A model generated the notes under the pieces. That model was not told where the DNA came from and did not search any database. It saw only the letters and a list, made by a program, of their open reading frames with translations. The position numbers and the translations under genes were made by a program. 64,000 nt of DNA from an uncultured archaeon. Lineage in GTDB: Archaea; Asgardarchaeota; Lokiarchaeia; Sigyniarchaeales; SOKP01. The DNA lies in NCBI GenBank assembly GCA_964486045.1, contig CAZALK010000003.1, forward strand, positions 224,001 to 288,000, written 5' to 3'. Positions 11,878 to 49,381 of the stretch are shown here, piece after piece. How positions within the stretch are numbered: position 1 is the stretch's first letter; each line of letters begins with the position of its first letter.

Positions 11878-13380
11878 CTATTCTTTTTTATTATCTAAAA
11901 TTATTGGTTTACATCCTTTTCGTTTTGATCCGGCTATTCGTTCCAACAGGGCTAATCCGGGTTTAATTTCTTTTAGATTTTTGGATTCAATTAAACCAGC
12001 TTTAACTGCATCATTAAAGATTTTATCACCTTGCTTAGATCGGGTTATAACGGAAGACCATCCACTCGGAGACCCTATTGATCCCACAGAAATGTCAGCA
12101 TAATCTGCTGTAAGGTCTTCACAAAATCCGCAATTTGGTCTAGCATATGATTTTACCTCTTTAAGAGGGACTTTTTCGACTTCTCCAGATTTCAAGGATA
12201 TAATAAACTTGCCACCACTTATGTCCATTTTTGTTATTTCGTTAAGTTTTTTCTCGAATTTTTCTCCTGATAATTTAAAAACATTTTCAAACGAAAAAGC
12301 TTCCATACAAAATAGTCCAATTGTGTATTTGATATTTTTAAAGAATGGCAATCCCCCTGGATAAAAACTTCCTTTCTGAAGAGCAGTTATCATACATGGA
12401 GTACCAACAACAGCGATATTTTCATATTTTTTTGTTTTACTAATAATTGCTAAAGTTGACGCATTTGCATATTTAGTTCCACCCGTTTCATATAAATCTT
12501 TTACATCATCAACAATAACTGGTTCTGGTCTCCATAAATCATCAGCATGTTTCACAGCTACTATGGCATCTACTAACTTTTTTTTTAGTAAAAATTCGAG
12601 TAGAGCAGTGACTATTCCTCCGTCTTGTCGGACCTTTTTAATCTCTTCATTAGTAGTTGATGCTGAATAAACATTTTTGTATCCATTTATCTTAGCTGAA
12701 AATGTCAATGACTTATCGACTTTGCTAATACTTAGACCTGCTTGTGCAATTGAAAACGATTTACTGCACACGGAATAACATATTCCACATTTCATACAAA
12801 TTTCGTCATCAATTTCAAGCGTATCTGCTGTAACTGTTATGGCATCTACTGGACATACAGATGAACACCAACCACAATTACAACATACTCCGGAATCGAA
12901 CACAAGGGAAACAGCGTCAAAAAAATTCTCAATAAAATCATCTGCTAAAGGTTTCAACTGATATCTATAAAAGTAACTTTTGACTTCAACTTCTTTTTCT
13001 ACTCCCTTTACTTTCTTTGTGATTTTTTTTACCTTTACTTCAATATGTTCATCTACATACCCTTGCTCTTTTAAATAAATAACATCACGAATTACATTAG
13101 CAGCGGGAAATTCTTCAATTTTTTGTGCGATTTCTTCTAAGAATAACGGCTCTAAACCCTTTAATCTCTCCAAAATTAATTTACGTTCCGTCTCAGCGTC
13201 AATCATTGAGTCCAGAATTTCATAGAACTCATTTTCATCATATTTTCCAATATTAAGAATCTCGCCCTTTGCTTCAAAAAAAGCTCGAACTTGAAAATTT
13301 GCTGATCCTTGATATGTAGCTTCCATTAACTCCTTTGGAGATATTTTGGTAAATAATTTGTTATTTACAGTTTCGACCAT
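11878..13380 (-). CDS. FrhB/FdhB-family F420-binding subunit with N-terminal helical/wHTH extension and 2x[4Fe-4S]
   Basis: CCNCGWCSSVCP, CMKCGICYSVC, QDGGIVT, GGTKY, VGTPC, GLFCME, CGFCEDLTADYADISVGSIGS. Confidence 0.92.
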   Translation of the reverse strand: MVETVNNKLFTKISPKELMEATYQGSANFQVRAFFEAKGEILNIGKYDENEFYEILDSMIDAETERKLILERLKGLEPLFLEEIAQKIEEFPAANVIRDVIYLKEQGYVDEHIEVKVKKITKKVKGVEKEVEVKSYFYRYQLKPLADDFIENFFDAVSLVFDSGVCCNCGWCSSVCPVDAITVTADTLEIDDEICMKCGICYSVCSKSFSIAQAGLSISKVDKSLTFSAKINGYKNVYSASTTNEEIKKVRQDGGIVTALLEFLLKKKLVDAIVAVKHADDLWRPEPVIVDDVKDLYETGGTKYANASTLAIISKTKKYENIAVVGTPCMITALQKGSFYPGGLPFFKNIKYTIGLFCMEAFSFENVFKLSGEKFEKKLNEITKMDISGGKFIISLKSGEVEKVPLKEVKSYARPNCGFCEDLTADYADISVGSIGSPSGWSSVITRSKQGDKIFNDAVKAGLIESKNLKEIKPGLALLERIAGSKRKGCKPIILDNKKE

Positions 13381-13427
13381 TCTTTCTTCAATTTCCTATT
13401 AATTTTAATATATTTTTAATACTATTT

Positions 13428-13478
13428 TTATAAAAACTTGTAAGAACCCCTTCCTTTGCAGGGCTAGTCATCTTATAA
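13428..13478 (-). promoter_or_regulatory. Candidate SECIS element (3' of mvhD)
   Basis: RNA UUAUAAGAUGACUAGCCCUGCAAAGGAAGGGGUUCUUACAAGUUUUUAUAA: AUGA, AGCCCU/GGGGUU stem, apical AAA, lower UUAUAAGA/UUUUAUAA helix. It is the only GC-rich patch in the intergenic gap. The 3' core reads UUAC rather than canonical UGAN. Confidence 0.6.
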
Positions 13479-13498
13479 CTAAAATTTTTTTATAAGAT

Positions 13499-13960
13499 TC
13501 ATTCAGCAGGGGTAATTAATGATTCTTCTTTCTTTTTTGAAATTTTTACTCCTAATTTTTTTATCGGATTGGGACCTTCTCTTTCTACCTTTTCGTATGC
13601 ATCTTCTACGCTTTTCACGAATTTCTCACTTTCAGCTCCGCTTAACCAGTACATATTTACTCTCTGATGTCCAAAGCCTCTAGAAGCTAATATCCTATTT
13701 GCTAAGTCTACATGTGTTTGTGCGGAAAAGTTTCCTTGTTTGTATTGGCATTCATTGGGGCGTCATCCTACTACCATGACTCCATCTGCTCCCGACAAAA
13801 TGGTATAGAGAATATGCTTTAAATCGACTCTTCCTGTACATCGCACTTTGATTATTTTCACCGAAGTGGTATATTTCAACCGAGAAACACCTGCTAAGTC
13901 GGCAGCACTATACCCTCATTTCAAGCAAGCAAATGCAATTATCTGGTAGTTATTTTCCAT
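13499..13960 (-). CDS. mvhD: Hydrogenase iron-sulfur subunit MvhD/VhuD, selenoprotein (Sec15, Sec66), 153 aa; absent from ORF track
   Basis: MENNYQIIAFACLK-U-GYSAADLAGVSRLKY...VRCTGRVD...GADGVMVVG-U-RPNECQYKQGN. TGA at 13916-13918 and 13763-13765 align to [2Fe-2S] Cys ligands; GGAGGTG SD. Confidence 0.93.
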
Positions 13961-13964
13961 TTGT

Positions 13965-15941
13965 TTATACACCTCCTAAAAGACCAGTAATTTCAGCGAA
14001 TAATTGATAGTCTCGATAATATAATATATCGATCGCTTGAGTAGGACAACACGTAGCGCAAATACCGCAGCCATCACAGTTTATAGTATCTACAAAAGCT
14101 CCAATTTCCTTATCGATTTTTATAGCATTCTTTGGGCAAGCCTTTTCACAACGTCTACATGAAATACAATATTCACTTGCTACTTGAGCAGTAATCAGTT
14201 CAATATCTACTTCTCCAGGTGATGTTAATTCAGCGACTTTACTTGCTGCCGCTCTAGCTTGTGATACTGAATATGCTATATTTTTCGGTCCTTGTGCGAA
14301 GCCAGCAATATATATCCCTTTTGTTTTAGTTTCTTGAGGCATTAAACCAAAGTGAGATTCAGTAAGGAAACCATATATATTAGTATCAAGGTTCAATACT
14401 TTGGCAATTTGGTTCGTACCTTTTGAAGGGAGTGCTGCTGAGGAGAGTATTACTAAGTCCGCATCAATTTTAATGATTTCGTCAGTTAACGATGAATACA
14501 CTCGAAGATTAACATTTTTTGTTTCAGGATCTTCAGAAATCTCCCCAACTTTACCGCGAATCATCCTAATACCAGAATCTTTGGCACGTTGGTAATATTC
14601 TTCAAAACCTTTTTCACCAGCCCTGATGTCAATGTAACAGATAGTAATATTCGCGTCAGGAAATTCTTCTAACAATAATTTTCCATTCTTAAGCGATAGC
14701 ATACAGCAAACCCCGCTACAGTAAGTTCTTTCTGTAGTTCTACTCCCTACGCATTGTATGAATACGATTTCTTTCGGTTTTTTTTTATCATCAGATAGTC
14801 TTCTTACATGCCCTTCTAATGGTCCGTTCGGAGCTAGCATTCGTTCTAATTGAACTTGAGTTATAACATTGTCAAATTCTCCGTATCCGTATTCCCCAAA
14901 TGGTTCATACATATCCCAACCAGTTGCGATTATGATTGAACCGACATCTAGATTAACTTCTTTTGGTAATTGACTAAAATCAATAGTACCTAATTCGCAA
15001 GCGTCTATACATGCGAAACACTCAACACAGGCATTTCTATTTATGTCATAGAGAAAGGGTACAGCTTGACCAAATGCTATATCAATTGCTTTTCGTGCTC
15101 CTAAATTTTCATCAAAGAAGTTTGAAGTATAGACAGGGCACACTTCTGAGCATGCACCACAACCATTACACTCATCCGTAACAAAGCGCGGTTTCATTTC
15201 TACTTTTACTCTATAATTACCGACATACCCTTCGACTTCCTTCACTTCACTATAACTTAAAATCTCAATATTCTCGTTTCTATTGACATTTAGCATCACA
15301 GGTCCGCATATTCAAATCGAACAATCATCCGTGGGAAATGTACGATCCAGTTGGGCCATCCGTCCCCCTATAGTGGTTTTGTTTTCCACAAGATAAACTT
15401 TTATGCCTTGATTCGCAAGATCTAGAGCCGCGTTCATCCCAGCAATCCCAGCTCCTACAATTAAAGAAGCCTTTGTAACTGGAACGGTTTTGACAGGTAT
15501 ATCTTCTAAGTTCTTTGCCCGTTCTATCCCGCTTTTTACCAAAATTTTTGCTTTCTCTAAAGCCTCTGAGTTATGTTTTGTACACCATGAAACATGTTCC
15601 CGTATATTTACCATTTGGAAGTAATAGGGACTTAGATCTGTCTTTTTAATCGTGCTTCGATAAATAGGTTCATGTGTGCGTGGTGTTCATGCAGCAGCGA
15701 CAATACGATTCAAGTTTTTCTCTTTGATATCTTCCATAATTTCATTCTGCGCAGCTTCAGTTCATAGAAAACCGTTCTTTTTTGATAATACTATTTCATC
15801 CCCTAAACTTTGAGCATAATCTACGAGCGCATTAACATCTATTTTGCTTTTAATGTTAACTCCTCACTCACAAGAATAAAATCCAATCCGTAGTTCTTCA
15901 GTTTCTTTATTTTCACTAGTTTCATTCCGTTGACTATTCAT
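13965..15941 (-). CDS. hdrA: Heterodisulfide reductase subunit A, selenoprotein with 4 Sec (U26, U60, U85, U210), 658 aa
   Basis: Single frame from ATG 15941 (AGGTG SD): RIGFYSCE-U-GVNI, FL-U-T, AAA-U-TPRTHEP, GAGIAG, FPTDDCSI-U-ICGP, QCVGSR, YCSGVCC, ferredoxin motifs. TGA at 15864, 15762, 15687 and 15312. Confidence 0.95.
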
Positions 15942-16218
15942 TTTTTACACCTTTTTTAAATTTCCACCTCAATTATTGATTATCAATTTCAACCATAAGG
16001 TTGATTTTAATTTTAATTTTCAAAATTAAATCACTTCTAATTTAAATTTTATTGATTTTTAAAACTTTTAATCTTTTTGTTTATCAAATTAAACAAGATT
16101 TTGTGGATTGCTTACTTACTTAAACCATTTTTAATGGGATCGGTTTAAAATTTCGGAAAGCATGAGAAATTAGGATGATGAATGATCAATAAGTATAGTG
16201 CGAAAAAACTTTGTAAAT

Positions 16219-17514
16219 TTAAATACTTAGAATTTCTTTTATAAGAGAGATTATTGTTTTTGTATTGAAAACAGATGTTTCTGCTGTTTTAATAAATTCT
16301 TTTATTTGATCATGATAATGTTTTTCAAAATGATTAAGAAAGTAAACTAATCTCTCTTTTAAACTTTGATTAGCGGATTTAGACAAAAATAAAGCTAATT
16401 TTATAAATTTACCATATGTTGCATGGATGTATAAGCCTTTATAATTAATTTCTTCCATAGAAGTAGTGCCCCCTAGTTGCGACATAAAAGAATCCATAGC
16501 TGACAAAAATCCTGATATTAGCTCTTTATCAACAGGGTAGTCTTCGCTTGCATGAGATACCATGTTTACCCCTGATATTTTATCAATGATTAATAGGCTT
16601 CTGAAGATATCATTGAATTTTGGCTTAACAGCTATTGAATGCTCCTCGGCAAGTAAAATTTTGCTGGGAAGTAATTCATACATAGTATAAGATTTAGATT
16701 TGTAAGCTTCCTTTTCTTTAAAATAATAACTGGATATAGTAGTTAATCGGGATGGTGCTCGAATTGGTTCATGTGGTAATTTTTTAATATACTCATCTCG
16801 CAACCTTGTGTCATGATCTTTAGATTTTTTGCCTTTAGTTATACCATAAATTTTCTGATGAATAGGATCAACTACGTAAAACCAAGCACGTAATTTCTGC
16901 ATATCTGAAACCAATCTTTTAAATCCAATATTTCGAACACCCCTGGGAGTGGTAACAAAAACAGTCCATAGAACTATTTTTGAGGCTTCACTGATCTGAT
17001 AAAAAGTGTCTTTATAATTTTCTTCTGTCAGTTCCTCTCCAGTCCTTATAAATACACCTTCAGTTCTTAATAATGGTTTTTTCTTAATTAAATAAAGATC
17101 TATTAAAAAATCTTTGATATCTGATGCATTGTAGACAATTATTCCCCAATCCGCTCCCTGATCTGCAAATGCGTCAATTAATTCTTGTTTGGAGATAAAA
17201 TCAAATCGTGTGATGTAATCACTTAGTTTCTCATCTTTTGTGATAGTATCTCCAATGAATGTTAAAAAAGTAGAATATTTCATCTGGAGATCAGGACTAG
17301 TTTGATATTTCTTAAAAAGATGAATGGATATAAGATCAAGTAATTCTAATTTAGTTAATGACTCATCCTCTGGGGTTGGAATATTATTTGTTTCCATGAA
17401 ATCATAAATTTCCTTGAACCTACTTCTTACGATTAAACAGTTCAAACATAAAATACCAATTTTCCCTTCGTTTTCTTTTTGAATCGTTTCTAAAATTTCA
17501 GTTGAGGATGGCAA
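16219..17514 (-). CDS. Hypothetical protein with C-terminal longin/roadblock-like domain
   Basis: LLIIDKISGVNM...DKELISGFLSAMDSFMSQL...EEINYKGL...LKERL..F..FEKHY is the typical Asgard longin pattern; the N-terminal part is unassigned. Confidence 0.65.
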   Translation of the reverse strand: MPSSTEILETIQKENEGKIGILCLNCLIVRSRFKEIYDFMETNNIPTPEDESLTKLELLDLISIHLFKKYQTSPDLQMKYSTFLTFIGDTITKDEKLSDYITRFDFISKQELIDAFADQGADWGIIVYNASDIKDFLIDLYLIKKKPLLRTEGVFIRTGEELTEENYKDTFYQISEASKIVLWTVFVTTPRGVRNIGFKRLVSDMQKLRAWFYVVDPIHQKIYGITKGKKSKDHDTRLRDEYIKKLPHEPIRAPSRLTTISSYYFKEKEAYKSKSYTMYELLPSKILLAEEHSIAVKPKFNDIFRSLLIIDKISGVNMVSHASEDYPVDKELISGFLSAMDSFMSQLGGTTSMEEINYKGLYIHATYGKFIKLALFLSKSANQSLKERLVYFLNHFEKHYHDQIKEFIKTAETSVFNTKTIISLIKEILSI

Positions 17515-17761: not shown

Positions 17762-19795
17762 TTATGCTCTTCTTCTCTTCAGGAAAATATATACCGCCGT
17801 AGCACCCATTATGCTTCCAATTATTATGGCTAAATCGAATCCAGGAATAGCTGCTTCAGGGGTAGTAGGAGGAGTTCCATAATATTTATCGATAGCTTCT
17901 TGATAAGTCTCGGTTGGTGAAGTATATCCAAAAGAGAAACTTGACCAACCTGTCAATATAAACTCGTTAGCTGCGTACATTCCTAAATCAGTGTAGTAGG
18001 TATAATCTGTTATTGACCATGTACCTGTCGTTGAAATAAGTTGGATTAACCCAGCAGGCATCGGAGCAGTACCATAGGTAGCACCATTTGCAGTTTGCAT
18101 TGGAGGTGCTGGGATGCCATCACCATCAGCTTGTCCTCCCGTGGCATCTGCTTCTGATTGTTGAAAACCAGATTTGTCTACAGCCTCTTCAAAGAATTGT
18201 ACGAGACGATAATGAGATATTGGTTTATAGGTTGCATTAGCGAGTGCCATTATCTCACGTAAAGCCCCAATGACAGCACCGATACTTTTTGGTGTATATA
18301 CATAGGTCGTAGCTCCTTCAGAACTTTTATAAACCCCATTGTTGTCATCCCATAATTGTCTTTCTAAGAAATCGAACGCTAGAAGTGCAGCGTTTTTATA
18401 TTTTGCATCATTAGTCACCTTATATGCTGCTAATAGACCTCGGATTGCTCCAGCTTGTGTTTCTAAGGTTCTTGCTGAAGTTGAAGCTGAACCTGCTAAT
18501 AAATCATAGCTGTTTTCAAAACCACCATCAGTTGGATCTTGAAGGTTGTTAATAAGAAAATCTGCTTGATCTGCTATGTACGTATTTTGGCCGAGCATAT
18601 TCATTGTTACACTACTCCATTCCTCTATTGCAGCAATTGCAAGTCCGGCATCGGCAGTAGATATGATATTTCCAGGAGTTAAAGTCCCAGGGCTGTAAGT
18701 AGAAGTATCCACGAATGTGTTGGAAACACTGTTCCAATGACCGCTTAAGAGCGTTGACCATATTGTCATTGCTAGCCCTTTCGATAAGTCCTCTGGACCT
18801 GGCATTCCAGTCTGAATCATGTTCCCTGGAAATGGCTGTTGTCCCATTCCAGTTCCATTGAAAATGTCATCCTGTGCTGGATCAGCAGACCACCCGTGGA
18901 ATCTTGCGCTCATCCATAATAATGACAATTGATCCCATAGTGTACTTGAACTATCGACCACAGAATAATTTTCAGGTTTTGGCATCGGCATCATACCACC
19001 TTCAGGTACGAAAGTATTGTTGATATCATAGGTGTATCGATGTGGAAAATAATGAGTAGAGGCATCAGTCATCGGGTCAAGCCCCATGTCAAGCATACCT
19101 GAAGAAATATTCACCGCAATCATTCCTTTTAGGAGCTTCATCTTGTTAATAACTTCGGCTGTCAAAACAAAACCACGGAAACCTTGTGTATTCCAATCCA
19201 TTCCATTAGTTGGTCCCAAACCTAATGCTATAGTAGCCCCTGCCTGCGTATAATTTAGCATGGGAGATGTATCAGGTGGTAATTGAGTTACAGAACCATT
19301 TGTTATATAATGGTTCCAACCAAGAAAATCTTCCGCCCATAATACATTTTTCAAGCCAGCTTGACCCAAAACAGCTGGATAAAGATCCTTATCGGCACCT
19401 GAGAGGTCCCATCTCAAAGTCGTGAAATTTTTCGCAGAATTAATAACATCTACAGCTTGGGCATATTTTGGTGTTGCTGACGCAAATTCCGCAAAAATTA
19501 CCCAAGCATTTATTGCTGGACCTCCAGCAGTCAGATTTGCGGCAGTACCGACTTTCATCATCATCATCGTCATATTTCCCATAAAAGACGGATTATATAC
19601 CATGTGGAGACCCATACCGGACATCATTACCGTATTTCCGAGATAATATCTCGAATACCAGTAACTTTCATTCGCAACGACTCCCCAGCTTTTTGTAGGC
19701 CCTGTATTTGTAGCTGCAATCGCAAAATTTGATGAGAACCCTTGGATTAAAAAAATGCTAATCAAAACTGTTAAAACTAATCTATTTCTTTTCAT
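17762..19795 (-). CDS. Met-rich secreted, CTERM-anchored protein with probable six-hairpin (alpha/alpha) barrel
   Basis: Signal peptide; MMSGMGLHM...MGNMTMMMM; ADFLINNLQDPTDGGF and AIRGLLAAYKVTNDAKYKNAA...FDFLERQLWD..NGVY hairpin repeats; IPGFD-TM-KRRR. Confidence 0.7.
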   Translation of the reverse strand: MKRNRLVLTVLISIFLIQGFSSNFAIAATNTGPTKSWGVVANESYWYSRYYLGNTVMMSGMGLHMVYNPSFMGNMTMMMMKVGTAANLTAGGPAINAWVIFAEFASATPKYAQAVDVINSAKNFTTLRWDLSGADKDLYPAVLGQAGLKNVLWAEDFLGWNHYITNGSVTQLPPDTSPMLNYTQAGATIALGLGPTNGMDWNTQGFRGFVLTAEVINKMKLLKGMIAVNISSGMLDMGLDPMTDASTHYFPHRYTYDINNTFVPEGGMMPMPKPENYSVVDSSSTLWDQLSLLWMSARFHGWSADPAQDDIFNGTGMGQQPFPGNMIQTGMPGPEDLSKGLAMTIWSTLLSGHWNSVSNTFVDTSTYSPGTLTPGNIISTADAGLAIAAIEEWSSVTMNMLGQNTYIADQADFLINNLQDPTDGGFENSYDLLAGSASTSARTLETQAGAIRGLLAAYKVTNDAKYKNAALLAFDFLERQLWDDNNGVYKSSEGATTYVYTPKSIGAVIGALREIMALANATYKPISHYRLVQFFEEAVDKSGFQQSEADATGGQADGDGIPAPPMQTANGATYGTAPMPAGLIQLISTTGTWSITDYTYYTDLGMYAANEFILTGWSSFSFGYTSPTETYQEAIDKYYGTPPTTPEAAIPGFDLAIIIGSIMGATAVYIFLKRRRA

Positions 19796-47342: not shown

Positions 47343-48647
47343 TTATTTGAAGGGATTTTTCTCATTAAGAATTTTTTGTTGATACTCTTTTAACGGTGGT
47401 GGGCATAATCCTGCTTTGTACGCTTCCTTCTTTAAAGACTTCATAATTTCTCCTAAATTTATAGACACAGGGCACCAATGGCGACAATTCTCACAACCTG
47501 TACAGAAAAATAGACCGTCTTTAATTGCGGCTTCAATTCCATTGTGGATATAATCTCGAATAATCCCATCAGCCCCTAATCCATATTTTGATGCAAATAT
47601 ATTACCAAATGCCCGTGATGCCGTACAGGTATAATTGCAGGTCTTGCAGCTAATACATCTTAAAAAATCTTGATAAAATAGATTTTCATTTAAAGCCTTT
47701 GTCCTCCAATCATCTACTAGAATCACCACGACTTCTTTAGCACCGTACATCCCAAGAACTTTTTCCCCTTGAATATCACCTGTAGCTGAAGGTCCTGAAA
47801 TTATACTGATATAATTAAAGGAAATATTATTAATCCTTGTTTGTAGTTTTGCAACTAAAATAGCGTCTAAAATTGTAGGGACTATCTTCGTTATTCCACA
47901 TAGCACAATATGCTTTTCAGTTGCTCTTGTCAGTAAACTAATATTCCCTTCATTTTCTCCTAACACAATGGCTCCATCTTCAGCAGAAATTACATTAGCA
48001 GACGTAAGAGATACTGTTACATTATTAAGTAATTCTTTACGATACGTTTCTCGAAAATAGTCAACAATCGCTCTAGGTGTTGGCTCAAGTTCTACGCCAT
48101 AAACTTCTTTTATTTTTGCAACTATATCTTCTCTCGAAAAATGAATACCTGGTCCAACTCCAAAAGTAGGTAACTTGTAATCAAACATGTGAACAAGGAC
48201 ATCACCTAAATCTGTTTCTTTAACTTCAATATTATTCTTCTTTAGAACATCGAGAACCCCAATATCTTTTGCTTCATTTGACTTTGATTTATAGAGTACT
48301 TTAGCATCACCAATCTCCTTTAACAAAAAACCATGAGCTTCCTCATTAGTTTTAGCTAGATAGACAGTCATATTATTAACTTCTCGCATCACCTTAATAC
48401 ATTTTTCGACATAGTAATCTATATTTTCCAAAAAATCCTCTTTCATAGCCATTAAGCGATCTTTATATTTATCAATAAACTCTTGAACTGAATCCTCGTA
48501 CATATGTCTTAAATTGCGCTGTTTTGATGCAAATCCACATAAAAATTTCCAAAAATTCCCAAATTTATATTCCCAGGTTCCTTCGGTTTCTAAAACACCT
48601 ATCCTTTGTTTTACTTTTTCATACAATTCTTTACCTTTATCACTCAA
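47343..48647 (-). CDS. LutB/LldF-like LUD + 4Fe-4S protein
   Basis: KSKS, ETDLG, ENEGNI, ISGPSATGDI, CISCKTC and CTGCENCRHWCP. Confidence 0.88.
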   Translation of the reverse strand: MSDKGKELYEKVKQRIGVLETEGTWEYKFGNFWKFLCGFASKQRNLRHMYEDSVQEFIDKYKDRLMAMKEDFLENIDYYVEKCIKVMREVNNMTVYLAKTNEEAHGFLLKEIGDAKVLYKSKSNEAKDIGVLDVLKKNNIEVKETDLGDVLVHMFDYKLPTFGVGPGIHFSREDIVAKIKEVYGVELEPTPRAIVDYFRETYRKELLNNVTVSLTSANVISAEDGAIVLGENEGNISLLTRATEKHIVLCGITKIVPTILDAILVAKLQTRINNISFNYISIISGPSATGDIQGEKVLGMYGAKEVVVILVDDWRTKALNENLFYQDFLRCISCKTCNYTCTASRAFGNIFASKYGLGADGIIRDYIHNGIEAAIKDGLFFCTGCENCRHWCPVSINLGEIMKSLKKEAYKAGLCPPPLKEYQQKILNEKNPFK

Positions 48648-49381
48648 CTTATTGGATCAACTCCTTCCATTAATTTAACAATAAAGTCTTCGATTTTTAT
48701 AACCGGTTTCTTAATATTATTTTCTTCTTTTATCCTTTTTAACGCTGTATAGCAAAATGGACATCCGGTAAGTAGGGCCTTCCCTTTATTCATATTATCA
48801 AATATTGATTTAGCGTTATAGTCACTATTTTCTTTAAACACTGAATAAACCCCCCCACCAGCTCCGCAGCAGATACTTTTTGTTTTATTAAAATCCATTT
48901 CAACTAATTCGACGTTTTCAATAGAATTCAGTATAGTTCGCGGTTCATCTATAATTGGAATTGAAGGATTTCGTAAGTGACAAGCATCATGGTAATTTAC
49001 CTTAATAGGATTTCCTAGATTTTTTAAATTTAGTTTTTCTAAATTTGAAGGCTCAGCTATAAATTGTAGTAAGTGTTGTACGTTAACAGAAAAATCAGAC
49101 CCTGCAAATTCTTTATAATATCGGGTGAAATAAGTATAGCATCCAGCACAAATTGTGACAAGATCAGTTACATTATTTGTTTTAAACCAACCATTGACAA
49201 ACTCAACATGTTCTTCCATAGTTTCATCCGGAGTTATATGATACGCTAATGAGCCACAACATGGGGCATCCTCTATTTCTTTATACTCATCATCTAAAAA
49301 TTGGATTAGTTTAAGAGCATTTTTGCATGTCGATTCATACTGCCTTTTGCTCAGACACCCAAAAAAAATAAGTTTCGTCAT
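48644..49381 (-). CDS. CCG-domain (LutA/HdrB/GlpC-like) Fe-S protein
   Basis: FFGC, CCG, CAGC, YHDACH, CCGAGGG, CPFC. Confidence 0.88.
   Translation of the reverse strand: MTKLIFFGCLSKRQYESTCKNALKLIQFLDDEYKEIEDAPCCGSLAYHITPDETMEEHVEFVNGWFKTNNVTDLVTICAGCYTYFTRYYKEFAGSDFSVNVQHLLQFIAEPSNLEKLNLKNLGNPIKVNYHDACHLRNPSIPIIDEPRTILNSIENVELVEMDFNKTKSICCGAGGGVYSVFKENSDYNAKSIFDNMNKGKALLTGCPFCYTALKRIKEENNIKKPVIKIEDFIVKLMEGVDPIS

Follow-up and report, generated by a model that had tools for sequence, protein, structure and literature searches.

The stretch of DNA analysed here, hereafter the window, comprises 64,000 nucleotides of contig CAZALK010000003.1 (positions 224,001 to 288,000 of its forward strand) and belongs to a genome of 5.18 Mb from the Promethearchaeota (Lokiarchaeota), which is distributed over 45 contigs and has an estimated contamination of 7.8%. 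On the minus strand of the window lie a gene for a homologue of HdrA, hdrA (13965..15941), a vhuD/mvhD gene of the FlpD family (13499..13960), a lokiSECIS, i.e. the selenocysteine insertion sequence (SECIS) element described from Lokiarchaeota (13468..13502), and an frhB/fdhB-like gene (11878..13380). The hdrA gene is of particular interest, as its reading frame contains four in-frame TGA codons, which are interpreted here as codons for selenocysteine (Sec, U).

Translated on the minus strand with TGA read through, hdrA consists of 658 codons followed by a TAA stop, and the plus strand of the same region holds stops throughout. A first-pass annotation, made from the letters alone, had proposed one HdrA frame with TGA at codons 26, 60, 85 and 210; the minus-strand translation confirms exactly these four, located at 15864..15866 (Sec26), 15762..15764 (Sec60), 15687..15689 (Sec85) and 15312..15314 (Sec210), with no frameshifts and no further stops. 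The gene had also been described as hidden in the form of a broken gene, and standard-code calling of open reading frames (ORFs) indeed divides it into a 444-aa ORF (13965-15299) and a 100-aa ORF (15312-15614). A six-frame search of the genome returned hdrA as a 99% self-match with four TGA codons.

The best phmmer match of the translated protein in the PDB is the HdrA of M. maripaludis (9sfi_A, E=7.8e-193, residues 17-656), followed by 8rvu, 5odc and 7bkb. In the alignments with these solved HdrAs the four TGA codons fall on the cysteines of the motifs CHC/CYC (CxC), (Y/F)xC, AAC(S/T)P and DCxxC, in agreement with the motifs to which they had been assigned at first pass. Sec26 stands in place of the second Cys in the CxC motif near the N-terminus, which is Cys in the solved HdrAs; Sec60 and Sec85, the latter in the AAC(S/T)P motif, are likewise found in the N-terminal domain. 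Sec210, within DDCxxU, aligns with X197 of 9sfi_A, so that the last TGA lies opposite Sec197 of M. maripaludis and does occupy the canonical HdrA Sec site of Methanococcales, as had been suggested; the equivalent residues are Cys197 in M. thermolithotrophicus and Cys205 in M. marburgensis.

The protein has the layout of the five-domain soluble form of HdrA, with an N-terminal cluster domain, a flavin adenine dinucleotide (FAD)-binding, thioredoxin-reductase-like domain, an inserted ferredoxin domain and another at the C-terminus. Membership in this group is indicated by the full-length similarity, the FAD motif, the ferredoxin domains, the N-terminal cysteines and the DCxxC pair, all of which were found. 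Pfam detected Pyr_redox_2, NAD_binding_8 and FAD_oxidored at residues 160-256, where Gly163, Gly165 and Gly168 of the FAD-binding Rossmann motif are invariant, and Fer4 families at residues 250-317 and 585-640, i.e. two regions of the 2x[4Fe-4S] ferredoxin type. Invariant cysteines are located in the inserted ferredoxin domain (258/261/264/268/305/308/311/315), in the CVGSR...C..CC cluster motif (397/408/412/413) and in the C-terminal ferredoxin domain (592/595/598/602/622/625/628/632), and C24, U26, U60, U85, C207 and U210 are invariant as Cys or Sec. Comparison of the structural model with Foldseek gave template modelling (TM) scores of 0.65-0.75, at a probability of 1.00, to chain A of 8rvy, 8rvu, 5odc and 7bkb, the best being 8rvy_A and 8rvu_A.

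The conservation of the TGA codons was followed in two sets of relatives, the first consisting of 40 relatives from a six-frame search and the second of 80 orthologous loci, with 72-82% identity, from a scan of GTDB species genomes. The 80 loci are mostly from metagenome-assembled genomes (MAGs) titled Promethearchaeota or Promethearchaeia, the rest coming from other Asgard candidate phyla or being titled uncultured archaeon. In the set of 40, at least 15 congeneric genomes contained an ortholog of about 80% identity with four TGA codons; the paralogs had 0-3. Among the 80 orthologs, TGA was found in all sequences covering column 26 (77/77), column 85 (78/78) and column 210 (80/80), the last being TGA in all Sec-containing paralogs examined as well, and at column 60, 56 sequences have TGA and 22 a Cys codon. 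Among the paralogs, U and C alternate at columns 26, 60 and 85. Such interchange between UGA and Cys codons is the classic signature of a selenoprotein. The TGA/Cys conservation on which the first-pass annotation had made its proposal depend is therefore seen in the orthologs, with three columns that are always TGA and a fourth that alternates between TGA and Cys.

A fifth in-frame TGA was observed in a few of the four-Sec orthologs, on a Cys of a CxxCxxCxxxC ferredoxin motif: in the numbering of the window HdrA, it is found at column 311 in three loci (L058, L090 and L114) and at column 308 in one (L125), both columns belonging to the inserted ferredoxin domain, and at column 625, in the C-terminal ferredoxin domain, in two (L066 and L032). 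Column 625 matches the fifth position of Mariotti et al. (2016), and 308 and 311 do not seem to belong to the five positions published there, as far as these can be deduced from the text of that paper.

The ratio of nonsynonymous to synonymous substitution rates (dN/dS, omega; Nei-Gojobori method) was calculated separately for codons 13-210, which would be untranslated if TGA were a stop, and for the remainder of the gene. In codons 13-210 omega was 0.027-0.045 among the orthologs and 0.056-0.078 for the window copy in the three comparisons in which dS could be estimated, seven others being saturated; these values are indistinguishable from those for codons 211-657 (0.035-0.063). The dS in these comparisons ranged from 0.6 to more than 2. 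Chance is excluded as the origin of the pattern, because the identical four TGA columns recur in orthologs with saturated synonymous sites. A decaying pseudogene, in which the four TGA codons would be nonsense mutations in a former Cys-containing HdrA, could account for the fragments given by standard ORF calling, for the higher divergence of the N-terminal domain of the window copy (median identity to the orthologs 68%, vs 82% for the rest of the protein) and for the loss of Cys117 described below. It is, however, hardly credible, and effectively refuted by selection and TGA conservation: TGA has persisted at these columns in as many as 80 independent MAG loci despite saturated synonymous sites, omega stays at 0.03-0.08 across the interrupted part, the frame has no frameshifts or other stops, each TGA stands on a conserved Cys column, and both a SECIS and the Sec machinery were found. 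The unconserved TGAs and elevated dN/dS that the first-pass annotation had named as signs of a pseudogene were thus not what was found.

The same data bear on the possibility that UGA is simply a stop and that only a truncated HdrA is made from the 444-aa ORF, starting at the GTG at 15299 and lacking the N-terminal cluster domain and the start of the FAD-binding domain. This ORF does exist, and ANME archaea are known to have HdrA homologues without this N-terminal domain (PMC9012536), but its start lies after the GxGxxG FAD-binding motif (residues ~163-168), which would make normal FAD binding impossible, and purifying selection acts on codons 13-210 as strongly as on the rest of the gene; this explanation is regarded as very improbable. 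That the TGA codons are assembly or sequencing errors in the MAG, a thought invited by the 45 contigs and the 7.8% estimated contamination, has a practically negligible probability and is refuted by recurrence, since identical TGA positions were found in dozens of independently assembled genomes.

The vhuD gene starts 4 nt after the hdrA stop and comprises 153 codons and a TGA stop. Its product was recognised by Pfam FlpD (E=6e-42) and NCBIfam VhuD (156.5 bits), and its frame contains two in-frame TGA codons, Sec15 (13916-13918) and Sec66 (13763-13765), both of which align with the two X (Sec) residues of M. maripaludis VhuD (9sfi_K); in the alignment Sec15 corresponds, in addition, to Cys16 in the MvhD of M. 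marburgensis. Both sites are U in all 66 orthologous loci in which a motif search located vhuD.

At the end of vhuD, the lokiSECIS consists of an AUGA core (13499-13502), a 9-bp stem (13490-13498 paired with 13470-13478) and a 3' GA (13468-13469), and reads AUGA, arm AUCUUAUAA (9 nt), loop AAAAAUUUUAG (11 nt), arm UUAUAAGAU, GA. The UGA of the AUGA core is at the same time the vhuD stop, i.e. the third TGA of vhuD at codon 154, and the six Sec codons of hdrA and vhuD lie 261 to 2364 nt upstream of the element. The search for it used a 35-nt skeleton written from Mariotti's description (AUGA-N9-AAAAA-N15-GA), with pairing checked separately by folding; 13468-13502 was the sole match in the window, a result that is weak alone, as at least one match occurred in 28 of 100 shuffles. 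The minimum free energy fold contains the 9-bp stem and a closing helix of 4 bp (z=-2.7 against shuffled sequences). The features of a lokiSECIS found here are thus the AUGA...GA core, the 9-bp stem, the 11-nt loop beginning with a run of A, the position after vhuD and a stem with compensated changes.

An equivalent SECIS was detected in 71 of the 75 orthologous loci with enough sequence, 432-480 nt downstream of the hdrA stop. The AUGA does not vary among these 71, of which 58 have GA as the 3' dinucleotide and 13 have AA. Double compensatory changes were seen at pair 4 (U-A to C-G in 14 loci), pair 6 (A-U to G-C in 8) and pair 7 (U-A to A-U in 6 and to C-G in 4), counts that refer to related sequences and not to independent events. 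Furthermore, the hdrA stop is TAA or TAG, and never TGA, in all 78 readable orthologs, as Mariotti's model predicts. Two other Sec-containing HdrA paralogs are encoded in the genome, on contigs C7 (three TGA) and C17 (two TGA), and both, together with one selD gene, have a lokiSECIS-like element just downstream.

The first-pass annotation had called for Sec machinery in the genome, and it was found: a tRNA-Sec gene is present together with coding regions for SepSecS-, SelD-, SelB-like and PSTK-like proteins. The tRNA-Sec scored 63.5 bits, above the Rfam cut-off, and was identified by ARAGORN as tRNA-SeC with anticodon TCA. SepSecS (390 bits) is encoded about 1.3 kb from it, and a SelB/EFSec-like GTPase, with TIGR00475 as its best hit (233.6 bits), on the same contig; these three genes lie within about 7.5 kb (G000:C15:132874-140357; loci L001, L002 and L011) and form a small Sec-machinery cluster. 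A PSTK-like kinase was the best hit to its model, at 141 bits, and two SelD genes scored 181 and 164 bits, each with in-frame TGA. The two selD genes are adjacent (G000:C1:756646-759952; L004 and L005), with one and two in-frame TGA codons, and the lokiSECIS-like element directly downstream of the second (C1:759918-759952) ends in a 3' AA, not GA.

TGA is an ordinary stop in the window, where other ORFs read through TGA gain only short junk tails. In-frame TGA codons were found only on Cys columns of known selenoprotein families, namely HdrA, VhuD and SelD. A genome-wide reassignment of TGA was accordingly rejected, since ordinary window genes end at TGA and their read-through tails are meaningless. 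More generally, UGA might be read as a standard amino acid, either as Cys through the Sec pathway under selenium scarcity or as Trp or Gly after a lineage-wide reassignment. The alternation of TGA with Cys codons at position 60 implies that Cys is tolerated there, and the inserted residue is not provable from sequence; but TGA terminates ordinary window genes and vhuD itself, the in-frame TGA codons are confined to Cys columns of the three families, a Sec-specific tRNA and the corresponding enzymes are encoded, and the SECIS is conserved with covariation. A standard amino acid at these positions has accordingly been given a slim chance.

In the mechanism proposed, UGA codons 26, 60, 85 and 210 of hdrA would be read as Sec by a machinery of archaeal/eukaryote type, made up of tRNA-Sec, PSTK, SepSecS, SelD and an EFSec/SelB-like factor, and the signal for this recoding would be one eukaryote-like lokiSECIS, placed where the downstream two-Sec vhuD has its stop codon. 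One polycistronic mRNA would carry the six Sec codons and the one SECIS, 0.26-2.4 kb away, which presumably serves all six. Translation of vhuD would terminate at the UGA within the SECIS core and that of hdrA at UAA.

Taken together, the region is considered, with a probability of about 0.93, to represent a genuine, intact multi-Sec HdrA gene in an intact hdrA-vhuD-(SECIS)-frhB-like operon, with Sec decoded via the lokiSECIS. The gene is intact, its TGA columns are conserved in the manner of Sec codons, a SECIS, a tRNA-Sec gene and the coding regions of the Sec enzymes are present, and the synteny of the operon is maintained. Several observations nevertheless weigh on the other side. The insertion of selenium at the hdrA UGA codons is predicted from sequence, as is the polycistronic hdrA-vhuD transcript, and Sec26, Sec60 and Sec85 are putative cluster ligands. 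An Rfam scan of 13200-16200, with E up to 10, retrieved no SECIS family and only a chance snoRNA hit; with no Rfam model recognising the lokiSECIS, the SECIS call therefore relies on the published motif, folding and covariation. The SelB-like gene falls just under the NCBIfam equivalog cut-off (233.6 vs 242 bits) and the PSTK-like gene below its own (290.5 bits), both models having been built on other lineages. The HdrA protein itself is below the cut-offs of the NCBIfam equivalogs for methanogen HdrA/HdrA2, with 743 vs 1100 bits for NF040770 and with 572 vs 1300 and 571 vs 1400 bits for the other two (NF041778 and NF041891), and a Pfam scan of the neighbouring ORFs found hdrBC neither in the hdrA operon nor adjacent to it. 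Homologues of HdrB are located on other contigs, the best at C2:92974 beside a Sec-free HdrA paralog, or are represented by a weak match about 35 kb away (C3:272692). Since the protein does not reach the equivalog cut-offs and comes from a non-methanogen, it is named here an HdrA-family bifurcating flavoprotein and not a CoB-CoM (coenzyme B-coenzyme M) heterodisulfide reductase; the same cut-offs and an operon without hdrBC also make it unlikely that heterodisulfides are reduced as in methanogens.

A further claim of the first-pass annotation concerned a motif in which the usual EQCSWVH was said to read EHVSWCT. The motif is present as given, residues 114-121 of the window HdrA being REHVSWCT (codons 117-119 at 15585-15593 and codon 120 at 15582-15584, minus strand), but the conclusion that a Cys had shifted by three positions was rejected, because most orthologs hold both C117 and C120. 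Among 81 sequences, the 80 orthologs and the window copy, 63 have REHCSWCT with both cysteines; C117 is kept in 78 of the 80 orthologs and C120 in 74. C117 has been lost in the window copy (Val) as well as in L116 (Val) and L107 (Ile). Judged from these alignments, C120 is an extra Cys typical of the ortholog group, and the window copy has simply lost C117, with no shift of a Cys. The motif Cys is not an obligatory ligand, because solved HdrAs have no Cys at either position (9sfi, REHDAFVH; 8rvu, REHDSWVH). In the structural model, positions 117 and 120 closely follow strand 4 in the N-terminal domain, at the cluster-binding edge of the sheet.

HdrA's N-terminal domain contains exactly four invariant Cys/Sec columns, 24, 26, 60 and 85, of which three are Sec here. 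The AlphaFold model of this domain has a mean confidence score (pLDDT) of 93.4 and superimposes on the N-terminal domains of solved HdrAs with TM scores of 0.90-0.95 and a root-mean-square deviation of 1.1-1.6 Å; in it, the four columns coincide with the C-terminal ends of strands 1-3 or follow closely after them. According to Chadwick et al. (2022, PMC9012536), the N-terminal cluster is bound in the crystal structure by Cys residues of this domain and by the partner protomer's Cys197, which corresponds to Sec210 of the window HdrA. In work by cryo-electron microscopy (cryo-EM) the cluster, HA3, is described as a mobile 'shuttle cluster', and for the Cys202/Cys205 pair, which is C207/U210 here, the binding of an unknown ligand is described, between FAD and the MvhD cluster (PMC13580544); the pair has also been discussed as a possible selenylsulfide relay (PMC13518236), and both of these 2026 studies call its role unresolved. 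Sec210 forms with Cys207 the canonical Cys/Sec pair, which is situated between FAD and the mobile arm.

If ligation is conserved and three of the four N-terminal Cys positions serve as ligands, at least two N-terminal selenolates and Sec210' of the partner protomer would provide three or four selenium ligands. A selenium-ligated HA3 cluster is on these alignments plausible, and it is likewise plausible that selenium would alter the cluster potential, as the first-pass annotation had supposed. Before these structures were available, Mariotti et al. (2016, PMC4989117) stated that the extra Sec residues are not cluster ligands; this statement now looks outdated, because the crystal structure places the cluster on Cys residues of the N-terminal domain and Cys197 (PMC9012536). 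A more specific, and on balance doubtful, possibility is that the four Sec are exactly the four HA3 ligands (26, 60 and 85, and 210 of the partner), with C24 and C207 as spare or relay thiols, which would give an all-selenolate cluster; C24 and C207 are never Sec in any sequence examined. In the literature searched, no link of this kind to an all-selenolate HA3 was found, and Mariotti et al. (2016) say the opposite. If true, HA3 would be a naturally all-selenolate-ligated Fe-S cluster at the entry of the low-potential bifurcation branch, and the Asgard enzymes would be natural selenium-labelled probes for the crossing of electrons between FAD and HA3/MvhD.

The N-terminal domain was also compared with MvhD, to see whether it is a module of that kind, in which case the Sec sites of VhuD could inform those of HdrA. 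Pfam FlpD gave no hit to it at E up to 10, hhalign against the MvhD-type comparison (A2 vs A3) gave a probability of 1.3%, and a wide VIA-align search returned generic flavodoxin-like folds only. With Foldseek, MvhD/ElpC chains appeared at ranks 10, 12, 16 and 34 (TM ~0.5, E 3e-3 to 1e-2), mixed with unrelated folds of the same class.

The frhB/fdhB-like gene downstream of the SECIS encodes a protein of 500 aa, with an N-terminal ferredoxin-like part and F420-binding FrhB_FdhB N and C domains (Pfam FrhB_FdhB_N/C and Fer4), which scored 273 bits with NCBIfam PRK09325, above the cut-off of 269. It is found directly downstream, at 69-75% identity, in all 17 orthologous loci with enough flanking sequence, and the conserved unit is therefore hdrA-vhuD-SECIS-frhB-like. 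By analogy with known complexes, the FrhB-like protein is likely the electron-input subunit. CofH (448 bits) and CofE (259 bits) of this genome are both above their cut-offs, and the genome can therefore make F420. The module resembles Elp-Hdr, yet has no hydrogenase, FdhA/ElpA or hdrBC alongside.

On the basis of homology to the Mvh and Elp-Hdr complexes, the products of hdrA, vhuD and the frhB-like gene would form a complex in which the FrhB-like subunit oxidises F420H2 as the putative donor. The low-potential electron would leave via the mobile, selenium-rich N-terminal 'shuttle' [4Fe-4S] cluster HA3 to ferredoxin, and the high-potential one would pass through HA4 to a partner, of the HdrBC type or another, whose gene lies elsewhere. 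Electrons may flow in either direction, by bifurcation or by confurcation.

Upstream of hdrA, two large ORFs on the minus strand had no Pfam match, one of 431 aa (16219-17514) and one of 677 aa (17762-19795); the former has no counterpart beside hdrA in the orthologous loci. Further away, at 47343-49381 (minus strand), a LUD-domain/Fer4 protein adjoins a CCG-domain (HdrB/GlpC-like) protein, the gene for which ends at a normal TGA stop. They constitute a LutABC-like lactate-utilisation pair unrelated to the hdrA operon.

The first-pass annotation had referred to reports of multi-Sec proteins in Lokiarchaeota, and the precedent is closer than that, since the paper describes exactly such an HdrA: up to four Sec at five positions, a tandem VhuD and a single shared SECIS (Mariotti et al. 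2016, PMC4989117). VhuD is there always directly downstream of HdrA, the HdrA stop is always UAA or UAG, and a SECIS AUGA doubling as stop codon is a published case, VhuU.1 (PMC4989117). A 2024 ISME J survey of 227 Asgard genomes extended the multi-Sec pattern and noted an AUGA_AA variant (PMC11227280). The window system agrees with that of Mariotti in having up to four Sec including the canonical site, with Sec on conserved Cys columns, a two-Sec vhuD directly downstream on the same strand (here after a gap of 4 nt), one SECIS, found solely downstream of vhuD, whose AUGA...GA core is combined with a stem of 9 bp and an A-rich loop of 11 nt, an hdrA stop that is never UGA, and a SECIS core UGA used as stop (for VhuU.1 there, for vhuD here). 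Nothing essential differs; four-Sec HdrA, the hdrA-vhuD tandem and the shared SECIS are already known, and the window provides one more copy.

Comparison with the methanogen systems gives a more mixed picture. The HdrA of M. maripaludis (9sfi) shares the full-length alignment, the correspondence of Sec210 with Sec197, both VhuD Sec and the domain order, but it has one Sec, whereas the window HdrA has a further three, all of them in the N-terminal HA3 domain, and four in total. SECIS elements of the archaeal type (PMC4989117, PMC11227280) serve the methanococcal genes in place of the lokiSECIS, and the methanococcal partner is the VhuAGU hydrogenase, in contrast to the FrhB-like protein of the window, which comes from a non-methanogen and has no hdrBC alongside. 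The Elp-Hdr complex of Methanothermobacter marburgensis, formed by F420-dependent ElpABC and HdrABC (PDB 8rvu/8rvy; PMC12350162), similarly combines HdrA, an MvhD homologue (ElpC) and an F420-oxidising subunit of the FdhB/FrhB type (ElpB) as electron-input arm. However, the window operon has no ElpA/FdhA-like gene, its FrhB-like protein has its own N-terminal ferredoxin-like extension, and the redox cysteines of Elp-Hdr are all Cys where the window has Sec. The best NCBIfam hit of the window HdrA is Methanosarcina HdrA2, an HdrA-MvhD fusion (NF040770), which gave the 743 bits over profile positions 1-639, and the window VhuD matches the fused C-terminal MvhD part (profile 644-773, 132 bits). 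HdrA2 is, however, a fusion without Sec, and the window has separate genes and a score below the 1100-bit cut-off.

As a discovery, the window copy adds little. Small additions are the linkage to the frhB-like gene in 17/17 loci, the distribution of Sec (56) and Cys (22) at position 60 and the rare Sec at 308/311. For annotation, it is relevant that standard gene callers break hdrA and miss vhuD, with the consequence that the bifurcating Hdr modules of Promethearchaeota are under-counted in metabolic reconstructions. Furthermore, three Sec in the HA3 'shuttle' domain and a fourth in the Cys pair would make this HdrA a useful natural tool for the mechanism of electron bifurcation, amenable to anomalous scattering, 77Se spectroscopy and the comparison of Sec with Cys at position 60.

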